The position numbers and the translations under genes are program-made. From assembly GCA_964525455.1 (NCBI GenBank), contig CAZGHP010000011.1:336-24335 (forward strand): 24,000 nt of DNA, given 5' to 3'. A model generated the notes under the pieces. That model saw only the letters and a program-made list of their open reading frames with translations, was not told the DNA's origin and ran no database searches. The DNA comes from an uncultured Candidatus Saccharibacteria bacterium. GTDB taxonomy: Bacteria > Patescibacteriota > SICC01. Below are positions 2,445-21,397 of the stretch, in pieces; the stretch's first letter is position 1; each line of letters begins with the position of its first letter.

Positions 2445-3665
2445 TCAGGTGAGGGTTTTGACGGCACCCCGGAGGCCTTCCACCAGCCGATCGATGTCCG
2501 CCGGAGCCGTGTACACGCCCCAACTGGCGCGGGTCGAGGCGGGGATGCCGAGCCGCCGGTGAAGCGGTTGGGCACAATGGTGTCCGGAACGGATCGCGAT
2601 TCCCTCACGGTCCAGCAGGGTCGCGAGGTCATGGGGGTGTGTCCCTTCGACGGCAAACGAGACGAGCCCCACCCGCGCGGACGGATCGGCCGGCCCGAAG
2701 ACGCGGAGGCCGGGAACGTCGTCGAGCTTTCCCAGGGCATATGCGCTCAGTTCGCGATCATGTGCGGCGATCCGCTCCCTGCCGAGCTTCTCCACATAGC
2801 CGGCCGCCGCCGCCAACCCGATCGCCTCCGCGACCGGCGGCGTGCCGGGTTCATACTTCGCGGGCGGGTCGGCGAACGAGACGGTGCCGAGCCCCACCTC
2901 GGTGATCATCTCGCCGCCGCTGAAGACCACGTCCATCTCCGTATAGACCTGGTGACGCGTCCAGAGCACGCCGATGCCGGTAGGACCATAGAGCTTGTGA
3001 CCGGATACCGCATACCAATCGGCCCCGAGCGCCCGCACGTCGACCGGCAGGTGCGGCGCCGCCTGCGCCCCGTCCACCAAAATCTTCGCGCCGGCTTCGT
3101 GCGCGATTCCCGCAAGCTCCGCGACCGGGTTGATCGTCCCGAGCACGTTCGAGGCGTGGGCCACGGAGACCAGTTTGACGCCGGCCGCTTTCTTCCGGAA
3201 ATCGGCGAGGTCGAGCCGGCCGTCTCCGGTGACTCCCCCGAAGCGGAGTTCGAGTCCCTGCGCTTCGGCCAGCCGGTACCACGGCACCAGGTTGGCATGG
3301 TGCTCCATCTCGGTAAGCAGGATCGCATCGCCCTTCTTGAGATTTCGAGACCCCCAACCGGCCGCGACCAGGTTGATACTCTCTGTCGCGTTCTTGGTGA
3401 AGACGACTTCCGACGCATCGTCGGTACCGAGGAATGTCGCGACCGTCTTTCGGGCTTGCTCGTATTCCCCGGTCGCCGCTTCCGCGAGCGCGTAGATACC
3501 GCGGCGCACTGACGCGTAGCGCTCACGATAGAATCCGTCCATCGCATCGAGCACCACCCGCGGCTTCTGCGCCGTAGCGGCGGAGTCGAGGTAAATCAGC
3601 GGCGTACCATCATGCCGCCGGGAAAGGACCGGAAAGTCCGCTTTCGAAACCAAGGCTTTGCCCAT
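2445..3665 (-). CDS. sufS: Cysteine desulfurase SufS (class V aminotransferase), 406 aa
   Basis: Full-length ORF with FPVL...IYLDSAATAQKP, SGHKLYGPTGIGVL (PLP lysine region) and RSGHHCAQP (active-site Cys loop). Confidence 0.9.
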   Translation of the reverse strand: MGKALVSKADFPVLSRRHDGTPLIYLDSAATAQKPRVVLDAMDGFYRERYASVRRGIYALAEAATGEYEQARKTVATFLGTDDASEVVFTKNATESINLVAAGWGSRNLKKGDAILLTEMEHHANLVPWYRLAEAQGLELRFGGVTGDGRLDLADFRKKAAGVKLVSVAHASNVLGTINPVAELAGIAHEAGAKILVDGAQAAPHLPVDVRALGADWYAVSGHKLYGPTGIGVLWTRHQVYTEMDVVFSGGEMITEVGLGTVSFADPPAKYEPGTPPVAEAIGLAAAAGYVEKLGRERIAAHDRELSAYALGKLDDVPGLRVFGPADPSARVGLVSFAVEGTHPHDLATLLDREGIAIRSGHHCAQPLHRRLGIPASTRASWGVYTAPADIDRLVEGLRGAVKTLT

Positions 3666-3713
3666 ATGGTCATTGTGCGCCGCCGCGGTCGGCGCCTCAA
3701 TCGACGGCGGTAT

Positions 3714-4925
3714 TCACGCCCGTGACAAACGCGCATCGATTGCCGCCTGGTACAGGGCGCGGGTACGCGGATCGACATCCGCCAACAGCGACTGCAGGAA
3801 TCCGCTCACGATCAGCCGCTCCGCGACCGTGCGGGAAAGTCCGCGGCTCATCAGGTAGAAGAGCTGCTCTTCGTCGAGCTGACCGACCGTCGCGCCGTGG
3901 CCGGCGATGACGTCGTCGGCGTCGATCTCGAGGCCCGGGATGGCATCCACGTGGGCACGTTCGGAGAGCAGCATGGCGTGGCCGTTCTGATCGGCCGCCG
4001 AGCCGTGCGCGCCCTTGGCGATCCGGATCATTCCGCGGTAGACGGCGCGCGCGGTATCGCGACAGACGCCGCGGGCGTAGGTGTCGGAGGTCGTCCTGCC
4101 GGCGGCGTGGTTGGCGACCAGCTCCTGCTCGAAGTGCTGCGCGGCGGAACCGAAGTAAATTCCGTGGACGTCGGTCTCCGCACCGGCGGCGACGAGCGCC
4201 GACTCCACGCTGACCTGGGAGAACGACCCTCCGAACGAACCCGCCAGCCAGTCCAGCCGGGCGTTCCGGCCGACCCGGCCGCGGTAGACGGCCAGGTCGG
4301 TGGCGGTGGCATCCCAATCCGCCAGGCTGCGATAGCTGAGCTTGGCGCCGTCCTCCACATATGCCTCGATGCCGCGGACAAGCACCGCCTCCCCGCCGCC
4401 GGTACCGTGTTCAAAGAGCTCCAGTTCGGCTCCTTCCTTCACGACGATTACGGTCCGGGAAGCACTGAGGCTTCCGGATTCGGCCGGAAACGAGAGATCA
4501 ACGACCGCCTTGGTGCCGGACGGAACCACTACTACGGCCCCGTCCTTCCAGAGCGCACCGGACAGCGCGGAGAAGTAGTGTGCCGCCACGGGCAACGCGG
4601 GGCCGAGGAGGTGCCCGGCGACGTGCTCGGGCCAATCATTCACGGCCTTCCGGAGCGAGACGCCCATCGGCTTGAACTCACCCTCGTACGAGCGGACGGC
4701 GACGTGCGGGGCCAACGTACCGATCGCTTTCCCTGCGAACCGCTCCGCGATGCCGTGACGTGCCCAGTTGGTGTACTTCTTGTCCGACGGCGGTGCGAGC
4801 CGCTCCAGTGCCCGGTACGCCGCGGTCCGCTTCTTCGCGAACGCTACCGGTTCGCGCGGCGTGAACCGCGGAATCGGAATAGTCGCAGATGCCACCCCGG
4901 AGACAGTTTGTCCAAGTGCTGTCAT
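3714..4925 (-). CDS. sufD: Fe-S cluster assembly protein SufD, 403 aa
   Basis: C-terminal SufB/D signature HGATVGQLDEEQLFYLMSRGLSRTVAERLIVSGF. Lies between the sufB/NUDIX genes and sufS. Confidence 0.85.
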   Translation of the reverse strand: MTALGQTVSGVASATIPIPRFTPREPVAFAKKRTAAYRALERLAPPSDKKYTNWARHGIAERFAGKAIGTLAPHVAVRSYEGEFKPMGVSLRKAVNDWPEHVAGHLLGPALPVAAHYFSALSGALWKDGAVVVVPSGTKAVVDLSFPAESGSLSASRTVIVVKEGAELELFEHGTGGGEAVLVRGIEAYVEDGAKLSYRSLADWDATATDLAVYRGRVGRNARLDWLAGSFGGSFSQVSVESALVAAGAETDVHGIYFGSAAQHFEQELVANHAAGRTTSDTYARGVCRDTARAVYRGMIRIAKGAHGSAADQNGHAMLLSERAHVDAIPGLEIDADDVIAGHGATVGQLDEEQLFYLMSRGLSRTVAERLIVSGFLQSLLADVDPRTRALYQAAIDARLSRA

Positions 4926-5344
4926 GAGTCGGTTACTAAGCGCGGTACATCACGGAAATTATCCTGACGCCATCGCCAGATCTCATCTCTCAGAAATCGG
5001 GGTCTAATCTCCGGCATCTGGTTCCGGCTGAAGAATCGCGCTTCGACGATCGGGCCACCAATATCCGACCAATGTTCTGGCAACTTCGCGCTCGTGCGAG
5101 CTAGAAACCAGAGCGAGATGCTCCTGTCGCCCTCTTCCCTGAGGTACTCATGGGCAAAAAGAAAACGAGGATTTCTGATCTTTAGCCCGGTCTCCTCATG
5201 AATCTCGCGGAGAAGCCCTTCGACAGCCGTTTCCCTTCCGGATAAACCGCCGCCAGGCGTATACCAATACCGTTCACTGTCCCTGACCAACAATAGCTCG
5301 TCGCTCTTGTTGAAGATCAGAGCCCTCGCGGCGTAGCGACTCAC
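4922..5344 (-). CDS. NUDIX hydrolase, 140 aa
   Basis: Complete Nudix box GGLSGRETAVEGLLREIHEETGL (GX5EX7REUXEEXGU). GTG start overlaps the sufB stop (GTGA, 5341-5344) and its stop overlaps the sufD ATG (ATGA, 4922-4925). GC is visibly lower than the flanks (a hand-counted 60-nt line gave about 53%). Confidence 0.85.
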   Translation of the reverse strand: MSRYAARALIFNKSDELLLVRDSERYWYTPGGGLSGRETAVEGLLREIHEETGLKIRNPRFLFAHEYLREEGDRSISLWFLARTSAKLPEHWSDIGGPIVEARFFSRNQMPEIRPRFLRDEIWRWRQDNFRDVPRLVTDS

Positions 5345-6756
5345 CCGACACTCCCCTCCATCTCCATCGCGATCAGCCGGTTGAGTTCGACTGCGTACTC
5401 CAGCGGCAGTTCCTTCACCACCGGCTCAATGAAGCCGTTCACGATCATCCCGACCGCCTCTTCTTCGGACAACCCGCGAGACATCAGGTAAAAGAGCTGT
5501 TCCTCGCCGATCCGGCCGACCGTCGCTTCATGCGAGACCGTCACTTTCGGCTCGTCCACCTCGATGTGGGGCAGTGTGTCGGAGACCGATTCGGCATCGA
5601 GGATCAACGCGTCGCACTGCACGTTGGCGACGGCGTTCCGCGCGCCGGGAATGATCTTGAGCAGTCCCCGGTAGGCCCCGCGTCCGCCGTCTTTCGAAAT
5701 CGACTTGGCGATCACCCGCGAGCTCGTGTCCGGCGCGAGATGGAAGACCTTGGCGCCGGTGTCCTTGTCTACTTTCCCGCAGGCCAACGCCACGTTCAGG
5801 TGTTCGGCCGACGCCCCGCGCCCGAGCAGCATCGAGCACGGATACAGCATCGTTACGCCGGAACCGAGGGAGCCGCCGACCCATTCTTGCCGCGCGTCCT
5901 GCTCGACCAGCGCCCGCTTGGTGTTGAGATTATAGACGTTCTTCGACCAGTTTTGGATCGTGGTGTAACGCGACTTCGCGGCGCGTTTGGCGAAGATCTC
6001 CACCACCGCGGAATGCAGTGACGCGGTCGAGTACAGCGGCGCGGTACAACCCTCGATGTAATGCACCTCGGCGCCTTCTTCGACGATGATCAGCGTGTGC
6101 TCGAACTGCCCCTGCCCGGATGCGTTCATCCGGAAGTACGTCTGCAGCGGCATCTCGACCTTGACGCCTTTCGGGACGTACACGAACGAACCGCCGCTCC
6201 AGACCGCGCCGTGCAGCGCCGCGAACTTGTTGTCCTGGGGCGGCACGCAGCGGGTCATGAAGTAGTCCTTTACCAGGTCGGGATATTCCCGTACCGCGTG
6301 GTCCATGTCACAGAAGATCACTCCCTGTTTTTCCCACGGCCGTTTGAGCGAGCGGTAGACCGTCTCGGAATCATACATTGCCACCACGCCGGAGAGGACG
6401 TCGCGTTCCGCTTCCGGGATCTTCAGCTTGTCGAACGTCCGCTTGATGTCTTCCGGCAGATCCTCCCAGCGCTGTGCGACCCGCTCCGTCGGGCGGAGAT
6501 AGTAGGTGAGCGCCTGGAAGTCGATGCCGGAAAGATCCGGTCCCCAAGTCGGGAGCGGCTTGGACTCGAAGATCTCGAACGAGCGCAATCGGTGCTCGCG
6601 CATCCAGGCCGGCTCGTTTTTCTGGTGCGAGATGTCCTCGACCGTCCGGCGGGTGAGGCCCTGGCGCGAACGGTACGTGTGCCGTTCCCGATCCTTGTGC
6701 CGGAACCGCTCAAGCCCGCTCTGTGCCGATGCGACGCTAGCCGTCTGGTCAGCCAT
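5341..6756 (-). CDS. sufB: Fe-S cluster assembly protein SufB, 471 aa
   Basis: Full-length ORF ending in the typical SufB C-terminus HEATVGRIGEEQLFYLMSRGLSEEEAVGMIVNGFIEPVVKELPLEYAVELNRLI. Confidence 0.92.
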   Translation of the reverse strand: MADQTASVASAQSGLERFRHKDRERHTYRSRQGLTRRTVEDISHQKNEPAWMREHRLRSFEIFESKPLPTWGPDLSGIDFQALTYYLRPTERVAQRWEDLPEDIKRTFDKLKIPEAERDVLSGVVAMYDSETVYRSLKRPWEKQGVIFCDMDHAVREYPDLVKDYFMTRCVPPQDNKFAALHGAVWSGGSFVYVPKGVKVEMPLQTYFRMNASGQGQFEHTLIIVEEGAEVHYIEGCTAPLYSTASLHSAVVEIFAKRAAKSRYTTIQNWSKNVYNLNTKRALVEQDARQEWVGGSLGSGVTMLYPCSMLLGRGASAEHLNVALACGKVDKDTGAKVFHLAPDTSSRVIAKSISKDGGRGAYRGLLKIIPGARNAVANVQCDALILDAESVSDTLPHIEVDEPKVTVSHEATVGRIGEEQLFYLMSRGLSEEEAVGMIVNGFIEPVVKELPLEYAVELNRLIAMEMEGSVG

Positions 6757-7540
6757 GGGGATCGTCTTCCACGGCGGCCGGAACCTGCCGCCGGCTCAGC
6801 CAATCGTAGCCTTTGGATTCGAGCTTCCGCACCAGTTCCGGCGGGCCGGATTCCGCGATCCGGCCGTGCATCATCACGTGAACCGCATCCGGCCGGACAT
6901 AGTTGAGGATCCGCTGGTAATGGGTGATCAGCAGCACGCCCATCTCCGGGTTCGCCTGTCGCACGGCATTCACGCCGCCGGACACGATCCGAAGCGCGTC
7001 GATGTCGAGTCCGGAGTCCGTCTCGTCGAGCACGGCTACCCGCGGTTCGAGCAGCGCCAGCTGGAGAATCTCGGCCCGTTTCTTCTCTCCGCCGGAGAAT
7101 CCCTCGTTCAAGTACCGGTCCGTGAACTTCCCGCTCATCTTGAGCAATGCCAGCTTCGTTTCAAGGACTTTGCGGAACCGCGCCACGGTGAGTTCGTCTT
7201 CGCCGCGGGCGGTACGGACGGCATTGACCGCACCCCGCAGGAACGAACCGAGCGTGACGCCAGCCACGGACTGCGGATACTGGAACGCCAGGAACAGGCC
7301 GGCATGTGCCCGCGCGTCAGGCGAGAGTTCCAACAGGGCCGTGCCGCCCAAACGCACCGAACCTCCCGTGACCGTATAGCCAGGATGGCCCATCAATACG
7401 CTGGCCAATGTGGACTTGCCGGATCCGTTCGGACCCATCAGCGCATGCACCTTGCCCGGATCGACCGTCAGGTCCACGCCACGCAGGATCGCCTTGCCGC
7501 CGACGCCGGCCTCGAGCCGCTTGATGTCCAGAAGGGCCAT
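6749..7540 (-). CDS. sufC: Fe-S cluster assembly ATPase SufC, 263 aa
   Basis: Start chosen at ATG 7538-7540 (MALLDIKRLEA...). Walker A GPNGSGKST, signature FSGGEKKR, Walker B VAVLDETDSGLD. 8-nt overlap with sufB. Confidence 0.9.
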   Translation of the reverse strand: MALLDIKRLEAGVGGKAILRGVDLTVDPGKVHALMGPNGSGKSTLASVLMGHPGYTVTGGSVRLGGTALLELSPDARAHAGLFLAFQYPQSVAGVTLGSFLRGAVNAVRTARGEDELTVARFRKVLETKLALLKMSGKFTDRYLNEGFSGGEKKRAEILQLALLEPRVAVLDETDSGLDIDALRIVSGGVNAVRQANPEMGVLLITHYQRILNYVRPDAVHVMMHGRIAESGPPELVRKLESKGYDWLSRRQVPAAVEDDPHG

Positions 7541-7547
7541 TGCCCTC

Positions 7548-7553
7548 ATCCTA
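7548..7553 (-). promoter_or_regulatory. -10-like hexamer TAGGAT, 7 nt upstream of the sufC ATG (candidate leaderless promoter)
   Basis: Minus strand reads cTAGGATgagggcaATG. There is no properly spaced SD. Confidence 0.35.
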
Positions 7554-7574
7554 GCAGCGTGACAGCGCGTCAGG

Positions 7575-7593
7575 ATACCGCCCGAAGCAGGCG
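7575..7593. repeat. Copy 1 of a 19-nt intergenic motif: ATACCGCCCGAAGCAGGCG
   Basis: 18 of 19 nt identical to 8531-8549. Lies in the gap between the DUF4234 gene stop and the sufC start. Confidence 0.7.
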
Positions 7594-7633
7594 TGCGCAA
7601 ACGAGACGGGCCAGGCACGTGCGGCGCGAGAGG

Positions 7634-8494
7634 TCAGAACTTCGTCTTGCTGCTTACTTTGCCGTTCGTGAACGTAATGCTGACGAAGTCGCTTCCCGCG
7701 TAGTAGTTCCAGACCGCCGTCCGCGTACCGCCGATATCGCTCTCCGTCTTGTTATCCGGATCGCTGCCGGCCACGTCACTGACCTCGTCCATGGTCATCC
7801 CGTCCTTCACGCCATCGTAAATCCGCTGGATGTCCGTCACGCTCTGCTCATCGTTGCCGCCGGGCAGCGTATCCAGGTCGTAATCATCGTTCGTAGTGTT
7901 CCGGTCGGAAGTAACGTTCAGCACCAGCAGCAGCACGCCGACGATAATCACCGCGATCTCGCCTTTGCCGAACGGCGCCTCGGTGCCACCGACCTTGTCC
8001 CAGTATTCATTGAGTTTCTTGACCGCGAGTCCCAAGAAGACGTACTGCGAAACACCCGCCGCCAAGGCGAGCAGCAGGAAAAGCAGCAACCCGCCGATGG
8101 CGCCGCCGCCGAGGAGTCCGCTTGAGGTGGCGTCATTGTCCAGCGCCGCACCGATACCGCCCAACAGCGACACGAAGGCTCCGAACCCGACGACCATCGC
8201 CGCAGCGATCAGGATATAAGGAATCGCCACGTACCAGCCGGCTGGGAATGTCTCCAGTTGCTTGCCGCTCCGCGCCTGGTTGATGTCGCGGTACAGCCAG
8301 TAGAGGATGAACGCGTTGAGGATCGGCACGATCAGTCCGACCGTCTGCAGGCCGACGTTGTCATCCGTCTTCAGTTCGGACTTGAGCCGGCCCTTCGTGA
8401 CGTAGAACCAATAGAACAAATAAAGCCCGGACGTGACAATCGTAAGTCCGAGCACTCGAAGTACGCTGCGCTTTACTGCCTTGGTATCCACCAT
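7634..8494 (-). CDS. Membrane protein with N-terminal DUF4234-like region and C-terminal DUF3862-like domain
   Basis: DUF4234-type SGLYLFYWFY and ILYWLYRDIN motifs lie in TM segments. The C-terminus, TDIQRIYDGVKDGMTMDEVSDVAG...ISITFTNGKVSSKTKF, resembles DUF3862. ATG at 8494 is preferred (GGGGG 6 nt upstream) over the track GTG at 8506. Confidence 0.7.
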   Translation of the reverse strand: MVDTKAVKRSVLRVLGLTIVTSGLYLFYWFYVTKGRLKSELKTDDNVGLQTVGLIVPILNAFILYWLYRDINQARSGKQLETFPAGWYVAIPYILIAAAMVVGFGAFVSLLGGIGAALDNDATSSGLLGGGAIGGLLLFLLLALAAGVSQYVFLGLAVKKLNEYWDKVGGTEAPFGKGEIAVIIVGVLLLVLNVTSDRNTTNDDYDLDTLPGGNDEQSVTDIQRIYDGVKDGMTMDEVSDVAGSDPDNKTESDIGGTRTAVWNYYAGSDFVSITFTNGKVSSKTKF

Positions 8495-18403: not shown

Positions 18404-19072
18404 TCACCGCGGCCGGGCGCAGTGCACCGCGAAGTTCCGGAGCAGGCGCAGGCCGTCCGGACCGGACTTTTCCGGATGGAACTGCACGCCGAACACGTTG
18501 CCGTCCTGTACGGCACTTACGAACAGCGATCCGGTCTCGCCAAGCACATGACGCGGATCCGCCGGCCGGGCCGCGAAACTATGCATATGATAAAAGCAGG
18601 AATGCTCCGGCAACCCCTCGGCCAGCGGTGACGACTGCACGAACTCGACCGGGGCCCAGCCGACGTTCGGTAACCGCGGCAACTCCAGCCGCGTGACATC
18701 GCCAGGAATCCAGCCAAGTCCCTCGGTCGGCTCTCCGGCGACCCGTCCCCGCTCGGTCGACGAATCGAACAACAATTGTTCGCCCAGGCAGATGCCGAGC
18801 ACCGGGCGGCCACTGTCGCGGAACGCCTCGAGCGGTTCGATCATTCCCGACTGCTGCAAGCGTTCCATCGCCTGCGAAAACGTCCCTACGCCGGGGAGCA
18901 CCACGCCGTCGGCGTCCGTCAGAGCCGCCGGGGTATCGGCCCGCACCACCTCCGCGCCGACCGCCCTTAGCGCTTTCTCCACGGAGTAACGATTGCTGAT
19001 GCCGATATCTACCACGGCCACGCACGGCGGGCCATCGGCAGCCCGTTCCGCGGCGGGCGGTCTCCGGGTCAT
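18404..19072 (-). CDS. hisH: Imidazole glycerol phosphate synthase glutaminase subunit HisH-like (class I GATase), 222 aa
   Basis: LPGVGTFSQAM, GICLGEQLL (nucleophile Cys), HMHSF and GVQFHPEKSG. ATGA overlap with the qor stop (19069-19072). Confidence 0.8.
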   Translation of the reverse strand: MTRRPPAAERAADGPPCVAVVDIGISNRYSVEKALRAVGAEVVRADTPAALTDADGVVLPGVGTFSQAMERLQQSGMIEPLEAFRDSGRPVLGICLGEQLLFDSSTERGRVAGEPTEGLGWIPGDVTRLELPRLPNVGWAPVEFVQSSPLAEGLPEHSCFYHMHSFAARPADPRHVLGETGSLFVSAVQDGNVFGVQFHPEKSGPDGLRLLRNFAVHCARPR

Positions 19073-20004
19073 TCCTTCACGCTGATGACGACCTTGCCGG
19101 TCGGGTGGCCTTCCTGCAGATAGGTCAGGGCCTCGCCGGCTTGCTCCAGCGGGAAGGTCTTGTCCACATGGACCGTGACCGCCCCCCGCTCGACGAGCCC
19201 GGCCAGCTTCGTCAGCCGTTCGGCGGTGGCCCGCGCTTGCACGGGGATCACCTCGACGTCGTAGTCTTCGGATCCTTCGAGCGGACCGTAGAGGACCATC
19301 GAGGCGAGCTTTCCTCCGGGGCGCAGCACCCTCAACGAGTCGCGCAGCGTCTGGCCCCCGACCGTATCGAAGACGGCGTCATAATCACGGACCTTGTCCG
19401 TGAACGACTCGTTGCGGTAGTCGATCGTCTCGTCCGCTCCGAGCCGCTTGGCGAATGCCGCATCGGCCGCACCGACGGTAGTGGCGACGTATGCGCCGAC
19501 GGATTTGGCGATTTGGATCGCGACCGAACCGATACCGCCCGCACCGCCGTGGATCAGCACTTTCTGGCCGGCGGACAAAGCGAGGTGTTCCGTAATCACC
19601 TGGTATGCACTCGCGCCGACGAGGGGCAGGGCGCCCGCCTCGGTAAACGAGATGTCCTTGGGCTTGGGCGCCAACTGGTCGGCCGAGACCGCGGTATATT
19701 CCGCGAACGAACCGGCGCCGCTGACCGCATCGGCCGCACCGTAGACCGCGTCACCGACCGCGACGCCTGACACACTCTTGCCGATCGCCGTGACCACACC
19801 GGCGACGTCCCCGCCGAGCGTGGCGGGAAACTGCAGTGGGATCGCTTCCTGCATCTGGCCGGAGCGGACCTTGCAATCGAACGGGTTCACGCCGGCCGCA
19901 TGCACCTCCACCACCACGCGGCCTTCGCCGGCCACGGGCTTTTCCGCTTCATTCAGGACATGGACCTCGGCGCCACCGTAACCGGTGATTTGTGATGCTT
20001 TCAT
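19069..20004 (-). CDS. NADPH:quinone oxidoreductase / zinc-type alcohol dehydrogenase-like (MDR superfamily), 311 aa
   Basis: VEVHAAGVNPFD and the Rossmann motif LIHGGAGGIGSVAIQIAK, with the typical Qor-like length. SD GAAGGAGA upstream. Confidence 0.85.
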   Translation of the reverse strand: MKASQITGYGGAEVHVLNEAEKPVAGEGRVVVEVHAAGVNPFDCKVRSGQMQEAIPLQFPATLGGDVAGVVTAIGKSVSGVAVGDAVYGAADAVSGAGSFAEYTAVSADQLAPKPKDISFTEAGALPLVGASAYQVITEHLALSAGQKVLIHGGAGGIGSVAIQIAKSVGAYVATTVGAADAAFAKRLGADETIDYRNESFTDKVRDYDAVFDTVGGQTLRDSLRVLRPGGKLASMVLYGPLEGSEDYDVEVIPVQARATAERLTKLAGLVERGAVTVHVDKTFPLEQAGEALTYLQEGHPTGKVVISVKE

Positions 20005-20099
20005 CGTCTCCTTCTCGAGGTCATGCTACATCAGATGCCGGGTGTGCCCGCGCGCATGAACGCTCCCGCCCCAAACCCACCAGGCTCTGGTTTCTCTTT

Positions 20100-20106
20100 C
20101 TTACTC
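20100..20106 (+). repeat. Left copy of the 7-bp direct repeat CTTACTC
   Basis: Identical heptamer at 21315-21321. This copy is the 5' strand of hammerhead stem III plus the cleavage-site C. Confidence 0.5.
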
Positions 20107-20152
20107 CATGAATGCGCGTTTATGCTGATGAGTCCGAAAGGACGAAAGTGAG
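20100..20152 (+). ncRNA. Hammerhead self-cleaving ribozyme motif, type III topology
   Basis: CUUACUC^CAUGAA-UGCGCG-UUUAUG-CUGAUGA-GUCC-GAAA-GGAC-GAA-AGUGAG. The full invariant core is present (CUGAUGA 20125-20131; GAA 20144-20146; A15.1-U16.1 = 20147/20105; C17 = 20106; G10.1-C11.1 = 20132/20143), enclosed by three correctly placed helices. Confidence 0.85.
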
Positions 20153-20195
20153 CTTGGGATAAAGACGATTTTAGCGGCGACGCTTCCATGACAAA

Positions 20196-20216
20196 AAGAG
20201 GCCGTATAAGCCTCTT
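20196..20216 (-). terminator. Intrinsic-terminator-like hairpin oriented on the minus strand
   Basis: AAGAGGC-CGTATAA-GCCTCTT (7-bp stem). On the minus strand the stem runs into TTTTTG (plus-strand A-run 20193-20197). It would block minus-strand transcription from the islet toward qor. Confidence 0.45.
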
Positions 20217-20316
20217 GCGAAACGTCCATGCCGGGCTCCCCAAAGCGTACTATGTTCGAACCGAAATTGGCGATCCTTTGCAGGTTTCTATATAAAAAAC
20301 ATGTAAGGTATGTCCT

Positions 20317-20628
20317 ATGGCTACAAAAGAAATTTCTGGCGGCACGGTACACAAACTGCCAGCCGATCTACGCAAGGCGTTGATTGCTGATCCAAAGGTG
20401 CTCGCTCTATGGGAAGACATTACTCCGCTCGCGCGTAATGAGTTTATCTGCTGGGTTGAGAATGCCAAACAGATTGAAACCAGGAATCGTCGCATCAAAA
20501 GAACGTGCGAAGAACTTCTCGAAGGAAAACGCCGGCCCTGCTGTTGGATTGGTTGCATCCACCGCACGGACAAGCCGCTAAGCCCCTCGGTGCGACGGGT
20601 GCTCGGTAAACAAGCTAAAAAGTCATAG
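20317..20628 (+). CDS. YdeI/OmpD-associated family protein, 103 aa
   Basis: LPADLRKALIADPKVLALWEDITPLARNEFICWVENAKQIETRNRRIKRTCEELLEGKRRPCCW matches the YdeI-type pattern. Low GC. AAGG lies 9 nt upstream of the ATG. Confidence 0.75.
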   Translation: MATKEISGGTVHKLPADLRKALIADPKVLALWEDITPLARNEFICWVENAKQIETRNRRIKRTCEELLEGKRRPCCWIGCIHRTDKPLSPSVRRVLGKQAKKS

Positions 20629-20643
20629 AAGCAAAAGGGTGTC

Positions 20644-21012
20644 ATGGCAAAACATCGGATCTACACAACGAGTGTCGCAAGGGTCTATCCATACTATGTT
20701 GCTAAGGCAGAGAAAAAGAGTCGCACAAAAACGGAAGTCGACGAAATTATTCGTTGGCTGACAGGATATAACCAGAAAGAGCTGGAAGCACAACTAGAAG
20801 AACAGACTGACTTTGAGACTTTCTTTGCAAAAGCTCCTCAGCTGAATCCGTCGCGAGCTTTGATTACAGGCGTAGTTTGCGGTGTCCGAGTGGAAGATAT
20901 CGAAGAACCGACCATGCAGGAAATTCGCTACCTGGATAAACTGATCGATGAGTTAGCGAAGGGTAAGACGATGGAGAAGATTTTGCGGAAGGAACCTAGA
21001 GGTGGAGCTTAG
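20644..21012 (+). CDS. DUF2200 domain protein, 122 aa
   Basis: [42 protein letters not shown]...[22 protein letters not shown] is the characteristic DUF2200 sequence pattern. SD AAGGG upstream. Confidence 0.8.
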
Positions 21013-21045
21013 TCCAGCTTCAGTAACGAAAATATAACGTTGCCC

Positions 21046-21083
21046 CAACGGTTAGCAACGTCATTGCAGCTGCTAACCCGTTG
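21046..21083. terminator. Hairpin between convergent genes (bidirectional terminator candidate)
   Basis: CAACGGTTAGCA (21046-21057) pairs with TGCTAACCCGTTG (21071-21083) with one bulged C and a 13-nt loop. Lies between the DUF2200 stop and the 62-aa gene stop. Confidence 0.45.
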
Positions 21084-21093
21084 CTTCCCTAGA

Positions 21094-21282
21094 CTAAGAT
21101 TTGTCGTTTAGGTACTTACCGGCAACACTGAGGGCAAACGAGGGCAGGATAACAAAAACAGTGGCAAACAGGAGCTTTGAAAGTATGTCATCATCCTTCG
21201 GCTGCGTCAGAACAACTAAAATTCCCAAAACGCCAAATACAACTGAAGCGTAGGTGAATATTCGCGTCGCTATCTTTTGCAT
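21094..21282 (-). CDS. Small two-TM membrane protein, 62 aa
   Basis: Two hydrophobic helices (YASVVFGVLGILVVL, LLFATVFVILPSFALSVAG). SD AGAGAGG lies 7 nt upstream of the ATG. Low GC. Confidence 0.55.
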   Translation of the reverse strand: MQKIATRIFTYASVVFGVLGILVVLTQPKDDDILSKLLFATVFVILPSFALSVAGKYLNDKS

Positions 21283-21314
21283 GATTGAACCTCTCTAGAC
21301 ATTAGTTGAAAGTA

Positions 21315-21321
21315 CTTACTC
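21315..21321 (+). repeat. Right copy of the 7-bp direct repeat CTTACTC
   Basis: Identical to 20100-20106. Separated by 1 nt from the encoded CCA end of tRNA-Asn. Confidence 0.5.
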
Positions 21322-21322
21322 T

Positions 21323-21397
21323 TGGCTCCGGAGGTCGGATTCGAACCGACGACCTTCGCGTTAACAGCGCGCTGCTCTACCGCTGAGCTACTCCGGA
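21323..21397 (-). tRNA. tRNA-Asn (anticodon GTT), 75 nt, with encoded CCA
   Basis: Minus strand reads TCCGGAG-TA-GCTC-AGCGGTA-GAGC-A-GCGCG-CTGTTAA-CGCGA-AGGTC-GTCGG-TTCGAAT-CCGAC-CTCCGGA-G-CCA. This gives a full cloverleaf, with anticodon loop CT-GTT-AA. Confidence 0.92.

Follow-up and report, generated by a model that had tools for sequence, protein, structure and literature searches.

The stretch of DNA analysed here (24,000 nt of contig CAZGHP010000011.1 in assembly GCA_964525455.1; the whole stretch is called the window and is numbered from its first letter) carries the motif of a type III hammerhead ribozyme. The motif lies on the plus strand between a quinone-oxidoreductase-like gene (qor) and a gene pair coding for a YdeI/OmdA-like protein and a DUF2200 protein (Table 1). 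The window has a GC content of about 63% and encodes Suf proteins, 2-oxoacid:ferredoxin oxidoreductase, superoxide dismutase and flavodoxin, and also a class A beta-lactamase-like protein, an S9 hydrolase and a sigma-70 C-terminus. The same sequence occurs as a 9-kb Logan contig (SRR6868922_20656). The closest named relatives of the qor product and of the YdeI-like protein are in Patescibacteria metagenome-assembled genomes (MAGs). In addition, the Patescibacteria MAG GCA_040902515.1 (locus L101, 59% GC) shares the gene order YdeI - DUF2200 ... beta-lactamase-like - S9 hydrolase. Judged by sequence, the window most likely belongs to a high-GC Patescibacterium, which would place the ribozyme within its usual phylum.

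Table 1. Features at and around the hammerhead motif, in window coordinates
Feature	Position	Strand	Remarks
qor, quinone-oxidoreductase-like	19069-20004	-	Upstream, divergent neighbour of the ribozyme
Upstream flank: CCAGGCUC, small hairpin 20079-20091, pyrimidine tract UUUCUCUUU	20080-20099	+	Terminator-like hairpin and T-rich tail (scan)
Stem III, 5′ strand CUUACU	20100-20105	+	Pairs with 20147-20152, 6 bp; U20105 is U16.1
Cleavage-site nucleotide C17, triplet CUC	20106	+	Aligns with family H17
Stem I hairpin CAUGAA/UUUAUG, loop 1 UGCGCG	20107-20124	+	20107-20112 with 20119-20124, 6 bp
Catalytic core C3-A9, CUGAUGA	20125-20131	+	Sequence; kept in model-found family copies
Stem II hairpin GUCC-GAAA-GGAC	20132-20143	+	G10.1-C11.1 is 20132/20143
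G12 A13 A14	20144-20146	+	Sequence, family alignment, RNAalifold
Stem III, 3′ strand AGUGAG	20147-20152	+	A20147 is A15.1, pairs with U20105
Conserved block before YdeI	20251-20316	+	About 80% identity with L101-L104; downstream of the ribozyme
YdeI/OmdA-like gene, 103 aa	20317-20628	+	Pfam PF13376, 2.3e-19
DUF2200 gene	20644-21012	+	Pfam PF09966, 6.1e-53
tRNA-Asn	21323-21397	-	Far edge of the low-GC segment

Read as RNA, the 53 nt of the motif (20100-20152) consist of CUUACUC, CAUGAA, UGCGCG, UUUAUG, CUGAUGA, GUCC, GAAA, GGAC, GAA and AGUGAG in this order. We found that all 11 core nucleotides, the cleavage-site nucleotide H17 and 16 of the 16 stem pairs are intact. The topology is that of type III: stem III is open, and each of the other two stems ends in a loop. 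The positions that a preliminary description of this DNA had assigned to the core, the stems and the cleavage site all agreed with the sequence. Two of the pairs are wobbles, U20102.G20150 in stem III and G20110.U20121 in stem I, and a possible seventh pair of stem I (U20113.G20118) closes the loop. As these G.U and U.G pairs would be A.C mismatches on the minus strand, the plus strand is the constrained one. The minimum-energy structure of the isolated 53-mer was the same three-way junction at -11.5 kcal/mol, a folding energy that is ordinary for its composition (z = -1.55 against shuffles).

A descriptor scan that required the core, an H17 other than G and three stems gave this site as its single match in the window. 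For the chance estimate, 3000 sequences of 24 kb were simulated with the dinucleotide transition frequencies of the window. A relaxed descriptor (stems of at least 4, 3 and 4 bp) was matched in 10 of the 3000 sequences, and none of them reached the stem lengths of the real motif (at least 6, 4 and 6 bp). Thus, the earlier statement that such a motif is very unlikely to occur by chance in 24 kb was borne out.

Related hammerheads were collected with an exact-pattern scan of species-representative genomes, in which the 23-nt CTGATGAGTCCGAAAGGACGAAA, covering the core and stem II, was the query. The scan gave 106 occurrences at 98 loci. Among these loci, 78 were named as Patescibacteria or candidate phyla radiation (CPR) lineages (Saccharibacteria, Parcubacteria, Paceibacterota, Minisyncoccia), eight carried the generic name 'bacterium', and the rest had other labels; this enrichment rests on an exact pattern that favours this particular stem II. 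When a stem I of at least 4 bp and a stem III of at least 3 bp were required for extraction, four occurrences failed, and the other 102 were complete type III hammerheads, in which a 5-8-bp hairpin abuts the 5′ side of the core and is accompanied by a single unpaired base and by 4-9 bp of stem III. In line with the NUH rule, 74 of these 102 relatives had C at H17, 17 had U and 11 had A, and G was absent.

The relatives were aligned (98 sequences, the window included). In this alignment loop 1 had the consensus UGYGUR. Stem I was 99.9% paired, with changes on both sides in six of its seven pairs, and the inner four pairs of stem III were 100% paired; all four Watson-Crick types occurred in both stems, and U16.1-A15.1 was present in 98 of 98 sequences. 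The covariation score was 0.669, whereas column shuffles gave 0.19 and slid partners about 0.10. Furthermore, RNAalifold independently predicted the same structure and topology from the 98 sequences. The core columns are invariant by construction, because the core was included in the search pattern, and stem II is invariant in this alignment for the same reason.

A family covariance model, R1, was built from the alignment, so that the window is one of its 98 training rows. R1 found 163 copies in the same loci, many of them with a different stem II. In a 106-copy alignment fitted to R1, the distal three pairs of stem II covaried (for example U-A 86, C-G 14, G-C 3, A-U 2), and G10.1-C11.1 stayed G-C in 97 of the 106 copies. 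Thus, when homologues were examined for compensatory changes, as the preliminary description had proposed, pairing was preserved and covariation was present in all three stems. The window copy itself scored 64.9 bits over the full length of the model (E ~1e-18), within the score range of the family, and no second hammerhead was found in the 24-kb window, where the next best R1 match had 10 bits with filters off. Hammerheads depend on a tertiary contact between loops 1 and 2 to be active at physiological Mg2+. Loop 2 (GAAA) and loop 1 (UGCGCG) of the window match the family consensus UGYGUR/GAAA, which is common to satellite-like RNAs, except at the fifth base of loop 1. The earlier reading of the motif as a complete type III hammerhead is therefore backed by the family covariance model, by helix covariation, by an H17 that is never G and by a sister strain (see below). 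To judge from these alignments, the window element is almost certainly a genuine member of this family, and with it a further member of a known ribozyme class.

The ribozyme was found at the same place in a sister strain (L127; ENA ERZ27297438, k141_360066), whose qor is 98% identical. This copy, which lies outside the training set, scored 69.6 bits with R1. Within the motif the window and L127 differ at two positions only, T20102 to C and G20110 to A, and both changes turn the two wobbles of the window into Watson-Crick pairs (U.G to C-G and G.U to A-U). Two pair-restoring changes are the pattern predicted by structural constraint, in two events alone; by our own reasoning, two stem transitions would preserve pairing by chance in about 1 in 4 cases. 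Since the next 220 nt are identical between the window and L127, the strains are too close to say more. A GC-rich indel of 42 nt (20038-20079) separates the window from L127. A small plus-strand open reading frame (ORF) at 20023-20151, which ends with UGA at 20149-20151 and overlaps the ribozyme, stays open across this in-frame indel (42 aa in the window and 28 aa in L127). With three non-synonymous changes, one synonymous change and no family support, this overlap was judged coincidental.

The design of the family is also present in viral sequences. The same 23-mer was found in 17 viral contigs. Most of these are phage contigs of 13-60 kb, often with two or three copies each, and three of the 17 are IMG/VR records of 322, 366 and 457 nt with the same design. 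In the 457-nt record there is, in addition, a hairpin ribozyme (79 bits with RF00173). A looser viral scan, for which loop 1 was the anchor (ATGYGTRT...CTGATGAG...CGAAA), gave 0 matches with a loop pattern too narrow for the phage copies, and a blastn search of GenBank phages with the 53-mer gave no match with a query too short to inform. Copies within one genome were more alike than copies between genomes.

Satellite-RNA type III hammerheads (RF00008, clan CL00010) have the identical core and the same open-stem-III topology as the window element, and the satellite-like IMG/VR records share with the family the 6-bp stem I, a loop 1 of the UGYGUA type and stem II GUCC-GAAA-GGAC. The hammerhead of sTRSV has the same stem II with the loop GUGA, and a similar loop 1. 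By its sequence features, the family is of the classical satellite-RNA type, at or just under the Rfam cut-off. Unlike satellite RNAs, the window element is a single copy in a bacterial chromosome, outside a small circular replicon, and its stem III has C-G, not G-C, at 16.2-15.2 (CUC as against GUC). A viroid-like or satellite circular RNA or a retrozyme-type element was considered for the window and rejected, as there is one hammerhead in 24 kb of a chromosome with housekeeping genes.

The preliminary description had also looked to the Rfam covariance models and had named the lack of a match above threshold as a ground for refuting the motif; no such match was obtained. A scan of the window at the gathering thresholds gave no family except tRNA, and in a permissive search of 20000-20300 the Hammerhead_3 model (RF00008) scored 20.2 bits against a gathering cut-off of 48.5. 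The match was local, covering model positions 9-47 from stem I to GAA, with stem III unaligned. Clear relatives scored 43.9-48.6 bits with the same model: the 322-nt satellite-like record had 48.6 bits (at gathering), a phage copy 48.3, the 366-nt record 44.2 and a Saccharibacteria copy 43.9. The gathering score was not reached by any of 18 genome loci, each of which bears a family hammerhead. Because undisputed relatives also score at or just under gathering, the low score does not refute the assignment of the window element. The gathering cut-off is a curators' threshold and not a biological feature, and it is too strict for this subfamily. The still lower score of the window copy is attributed to its A/U-rich stem I and to the C-G pair at 16.2-15.2. 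These results suggest that the Rfam hammerhead models and thresholds under-call this clade, and that raw sequence alone was enough to pick out what is in all probability a true ribozyme, though it lies under Rfam's curated threshold.

To learn the usual setting of the family, we used crude ORF calls for 113 copies, which sit in intergenic gaps. Same-strand neighbours were found upstream in 85 of the 113 cases, downstream in 76 and on both sides in 62, and the median gaps were 83 nt upstream and about 105 nt downstream. At 36 of the 98 loci there were 2-10 copies within 8 kb, all on one strand except in two of those 36, and the intervals of 0.2-1.2 kb between copies were mostly occupied by one ORF. 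The flanking proteins were small and non-conserved (114 of 154 were singletons), and the rare Pfam matches near copies were accessory or defence-like, such as Csx3, SAVED, MazF, DinG-like helicases, methyltransferases and radical SAM proteins. A conserved protein partner was rejected, as the flanking ORFs were mostly singletons with few Pfam or PHROG matches. In addition, the 45 nt upstream of copies were more structured than the 45 nt downstream (mean -8.0 versus -5.7 kcal/mol), and sigma-70-like sites were found in 24 of 144 downstream stretches of 150 nt versus 8 of 144 upstream.

Most published bacterial hammerheads are of type II and often pseudoknot-stabilised. Compared with the published ones, this subfamily stands apart by its type III topology, its satellite-like loops and its concentration in Patescibacteria, and the window copy lacks an upstream same-strand gene. 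According to PMC3088659 and PMC6155905, bacterial and prophage hammerheads form intergenic clusters that flank individual variable small genes, often in prophages; it is proposed that they cut long transcripts into gene-length RNAs, and their role is still called an open question. The present family shows the intergenic layout given in this literature (De la Pena and Garcia-Robles 2010; Perreault et al. 2011, PMC3088659; Jimenez et al. 2011), and type II and pseudoknot-stabilised bacterial hammerheads are also on record there. A literature search found no paper with hammerheads together with Patescibacteria, Saccharibacteria, Parcubacteria or the candidate phyla radiation as its topic, in a body of papers that excludes most subscription journals. 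Within the same limit, the enrichment of the design in Patescibacteria, the Rfam miss and the add-on modules described below are not described in the literature searched.

On balance, we favour with moderate confidence the explanation that the window carries a genuine type III hammerhead which serves as a processing or insulating intergenic element, with inefficient or conditional cleavage at this locus. The subfamily to which it is assigned (stem I of 6 bp, loop 1 UGYGUR, stem II GUCC-GAAA-GGAC) appears to be abundant in Patescibacteria genomes and phage contigs. As the chemistry of the class suggests, the CUGAUGA/GAA core would be enclosed by stems I-III, and loops 1 and 2 would dock. The 2′-OH of C20106 would attack its 3′ phosphate, with the predicted scissile bond between 20106 and 20107, and this would leave an upstream fragment ending in a 2′,3′-cyclic phosphate at 20106 and a downstream fragment with a 5′-OH at C20107. 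From the family context we infer a carrier transcript and a role: plus-strand RNA entering from upstream would be cut off the YdeI-DUF2200 unit. The pyrimidine tract before the motif is predicted to trap the ribozyme in a more stable, inactive hairpin, and the active fold would be reached only by co-transcriptional folding or in a transcript starting after about 20092. By analogy with its class, the minimal RNA is likely to be catalytically competent, and a present role at this locus is somewhat doubtful. The preliminary description had left the biological role open, and rightly so: 5′ processing of a read-through transcript, which it had mentioned, fits the family context best, but no upstream same-strand gene or promoter is seen here. 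A functional analogy is offered by RiboJ-type insulators, synthetic sTRSV-derived elements placed between promoter and gene: a satellite-type type III hammerhead in front of a gene would likewise give a defined 5′-OH end and uncouple the gene from upstream sequence. Compared with RiboJ, the window element is natural, and the promoter of YdeI itself seems to lie 3′ of the ribozyme.

Besides the low Rfam score, several observations weigh against this explanation. In a native context of 121-171 nt, the minimum-energy structure is not the hammerhead. In the competing fold, UUUCUCUUUC (20091-20100) pairs with GAAAGG and GAAA, ACUC pairs with GAGU, and CCAGGCUC (20080-87) pairs with GAGCUUGG (20149-56), which gives a rod-like hairpin that keeps stem I alone. 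This fold lies 7.1 kcal/mol below the best hammerhead-containing fold (7.8 in L127), and the probability of stem II is about 0.01-0.03 in the native context. Stem II was kept in context by 92 of 104 family copies, and the other 12, including L016 and one L033 copy, behave like the window. The fifth base of loop 1, which is C in the window, is U in at least 90% of the family. Furthermore, a consensus scan gave no sigma-70-like promoter on the plus strand upstream of the motif, in agreement with the preliminary description, and CPR promoters may differ from that consensus. The upstream neighbour qor is divergent, with 95 nt between its start codon and the motif (53 in L127), and such a context was found in merely 14 of 113 family copies. 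The YdeI-DUF2200 pair does lie downstream in the same orientation, as described before, with 164 nt to the start codon at 20317. Over 79 nt, the sequence before YdeI (20251-20326, reaching 10 nt into the coding region) has about 80% identity with the region upstream of YdeI in a hammerhead-less Patescibacteria MAG, and sharing with L101 is limited to the 75 nt that precede the start codon. The conserved block at 20251-20316 is probably the promoter and 5′ untranslated region of YdeI itself. No hammerhead was found upstream of YdeI in L101, L105 and L109, and one of 80 metagenomic YdeI loci had a nearby hammerhead, which was oppositely oriented. An association with the YdeI gene was therefore rejected, as L101-L109 and the 80 metagenomic loci together gave this one hammerhead in opposite orientation. 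Nearest-neighbour energies omit loop-loop docking and co-transcriptional kinetics, so inactivity is not proven by the competing fold. As modelled, cleavage at the window would depend on transcript start or folding kinetics and is probably inefficient or conditional.

Much of the same evidence bears on a different account, in which the element is a true member of the family by descent and a decaying or silenced relic, no longer transcribed or cleaving; we regard this as possible, if rather unlikely. The relic would have come with the low-GC YdeI-DUF2200 segment or have been stranded by rearrangement, and its persistence would be due only to the closeness of the two strains sampled. The lack of an upstream same-strand gene or promoter agrees with this, and so do the two wobble pairs with the atypical loop-1 base, the competing fold favoured by about 7 kcal/mol and the lack of a hammerhead upstream of YdeI in L101, L105, L109 and 79 of the 80 metagenomic loci. 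The GC content also falls abruptly from about 66% to about 47% right at the 5′ edge of the ribozyme, and L127 is nearly identical over the next 220 nt, so that its conservation says little. However, the core (11 nucleotides), H17 and the 16 stem pairs are fully intact, both substitutions between the strains keep pairing, and the R1 score of the window is within the family range. Viroid and satellite hammerheads also lie within more stable alternative folds and act co-transcriptionally. A chance match to a minimal hammerhead descriptor would go with an Rfam score under gathering and a folding z-score of merely -1.55. It is refuted by family membership and is vanishingly improbable: no simulated window held an equally good match, the family model gave 64.9 bits, loop 1 and the stem lengths agree with those of over 150 family copies, and the motif is conserved in the sister strain.

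The drop in GC content belongs to a segment of about 47% GC (about 20092-21322) within a genome of 63-66% GC. It runs from the ribozyme to the 3′ end of tRNA-Asn and includes, besides the ribozyme, the YdeI and DUF2200 genes and a membrane-like ORF of 62 aa. The element could thus be an edge or component of a mobile or phage-derived cassette of hammerhead, YdeI and DUF2200, and have nothing to do with processing of host transcripts. The presence of the family in phage contigs, the greater likeness of copies within a genome, the small, diverse and accessory-like flanking genes (Csx3, SAVED, MazF, helicases, methyltransferases) and YdeI proteins that are 80-88% identical across thousands of metagenomic sequences would suit such a cassette. 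However, neither a direct repeat of the tRNA 3′ end, nor an integrase, nor a second hammerhead was found in the window. A comparison of the low-GC edge with tRNA-Asn for att-type direct repeats gave the chance-level 10-mer TTCGAACCGA only. PHROG matches to the flanking ORFs were sparse, and in a hammerhead-less relative with about 70% qor identity YdeI-DUF2200 stand beside the same beta-lactamase-like and S9 hydrolase genes, so the pair is ancestral to the locus and no recent insert. We consider the cassette improbable. Still less probable, and in fact very unlikely, is a processing unit of a VIPR-type guide-RNA (vrRNA) array. A 2026 preprint describes such ribozyme-vrRNA arrays, which are interspersed with hammerheads and have helicase or nuclease partners (bioRxiv 10.64898/2026.04.26.720920), and two loci of our family, L007 and L022, have dense hammerhead arrays, pentamer-periodic tracts and a DinG-like helicase. 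In contrast, the window has a single hammerhead, no pentamer tract of the GGYNN or NNN[G/C]T type and, by Pfam, no helicase or RAMP-like neighbour. An array of this type was therefore rejected for the window, where pentamer tracts are absent.

These loci are part of a set of dense same-strand arrays, L007 at 2472-6531 (+), L022 at 2597-6338 (+) and L058 at 6886-7697 (-). There are 10 copies in L007 by R1 matches, and some array copies are merely 75-85 nt apart. Each of the three arrays adjoins a DinG-like helicase of about 600 aa (Helicase_C_2, DEAD and ResIII). Between the ribozymes of L007 and L022 there are stretches in which pentamers of the form NNN[G/C]T follow one another at least 8-9 times, and such runs were found in none of the other fetched loci, in the window or in shuffles. 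The three loci resemble VIPR arrays in having hammerheads interspersed with putative short RNAs and an adjoining helicase, and the tracts of L007 and L022 differ from the GGYNN of VIPR.

Other modules were seen next to single copies. Many Saccharimonadia-type copies (L016, L033, L069, L072, L093 and others) lie 20-40 nt past a strong G+C-rich hairpin with no U-tail, and a near-consensus TTGACA-17-TAATAT promoter was found 15-70 nt downstream of copies in L001, L025, L032, L033, L046 and L069. With the hairpin on the 5′ side and the promoter on the 3′ side, the ribozyme in such copies is therefore placed between a terminator-like hairpin and the next promoter. In addition, 27 of 102 copies (loci L001-L098), but 1 of 102 controls, have the motif GWWCWTTNARA (for example GTTCTTTGAAA) at a fixed place directly 3′ of stem III, 5-11 nt after the ribozyme GAAA. 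We take it to resemble the BoxA antitermination element. This motif is absent from the window.

A wider interpretation, which we hold to be fairly improbable, is that the satellite-type type III hammerhead is a general transcript punctuation mark in Patescibacteria and their phages, made conditional at the window by the upstream tract. On this view, the ends of the RNA would be set for each gene by the ribozyme and not by protein RNases or terminators; the module often has a 5′ hairpin and in about a quarter of the copies a BoxA-like GWWCWUUNARA 3′ of stem III. At the window, the pyrimidine tract would act as an 'anti-ribozyme' and make a natural ribozyme switch before YdeI-DUF2200. Whichever account holds, the satellite-style type III hammerhead appears to be very common in CPR bacteria, where it would punctuate arrays of small unknown genes, and at a few loci hammerheads seem to punctuate pentamer-coded small-RNA arrays beside a helicase. 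The family is a concrete handle on the long-standing question of bacterial hammerhead function, and it offers testable modules, namely the 5′ hairpin, the ribozyme, the BoxA-like motif and possibly the anti-ribozyme tract. For the window itself the gain is modest: another hammerhead is added, and its setting is atypical and may be non-functional.

Some further observations concern the neighbouring genes. The YdeI/OmdA-like protein has thousands of metagenomic homologues at 80-88% identity, and the five loci that were checked are in genomes of 48-63% GC; for a small accessory protein, this means either conservation of unusual tightness or frequent transfer. On the Logan and ENA contigs that carry the gene, it is uncalled. 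The conserved block before it (20251-20316) includes TATGTTCGA, a small hairpin GATCCU..AGGUU and TATATAAAAAACATGTAAGG, and is possibly a promoter or operator with a leader. Between the ribozyme and YdeI there is a terminator-like hairpin on the minus strand (20196-20216, AAGAGGC-TTATACG-GCCTCTT followed by TTTTTGT). It has no minus-strand gene upstream and would lie within a long qor leader if transcription of qor starts beyond 20216. Meanwhile, an inverted repeat, 20003-20009 (ATCGTCT) and 20163-20169 (AGACGAT), could mask the ribosome-binding region of qor. In L101 there is a milder GC dip over the same genes, and the place of the window's tRNA-Asn, between DUF2200 and the beta-lactamase-like gene, is taken by an RVT_1 reverse transcriptase and bAvd (5767-7247). 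These two L101 genes look like a diversity-generating retroelement, and the site varies between relatives.

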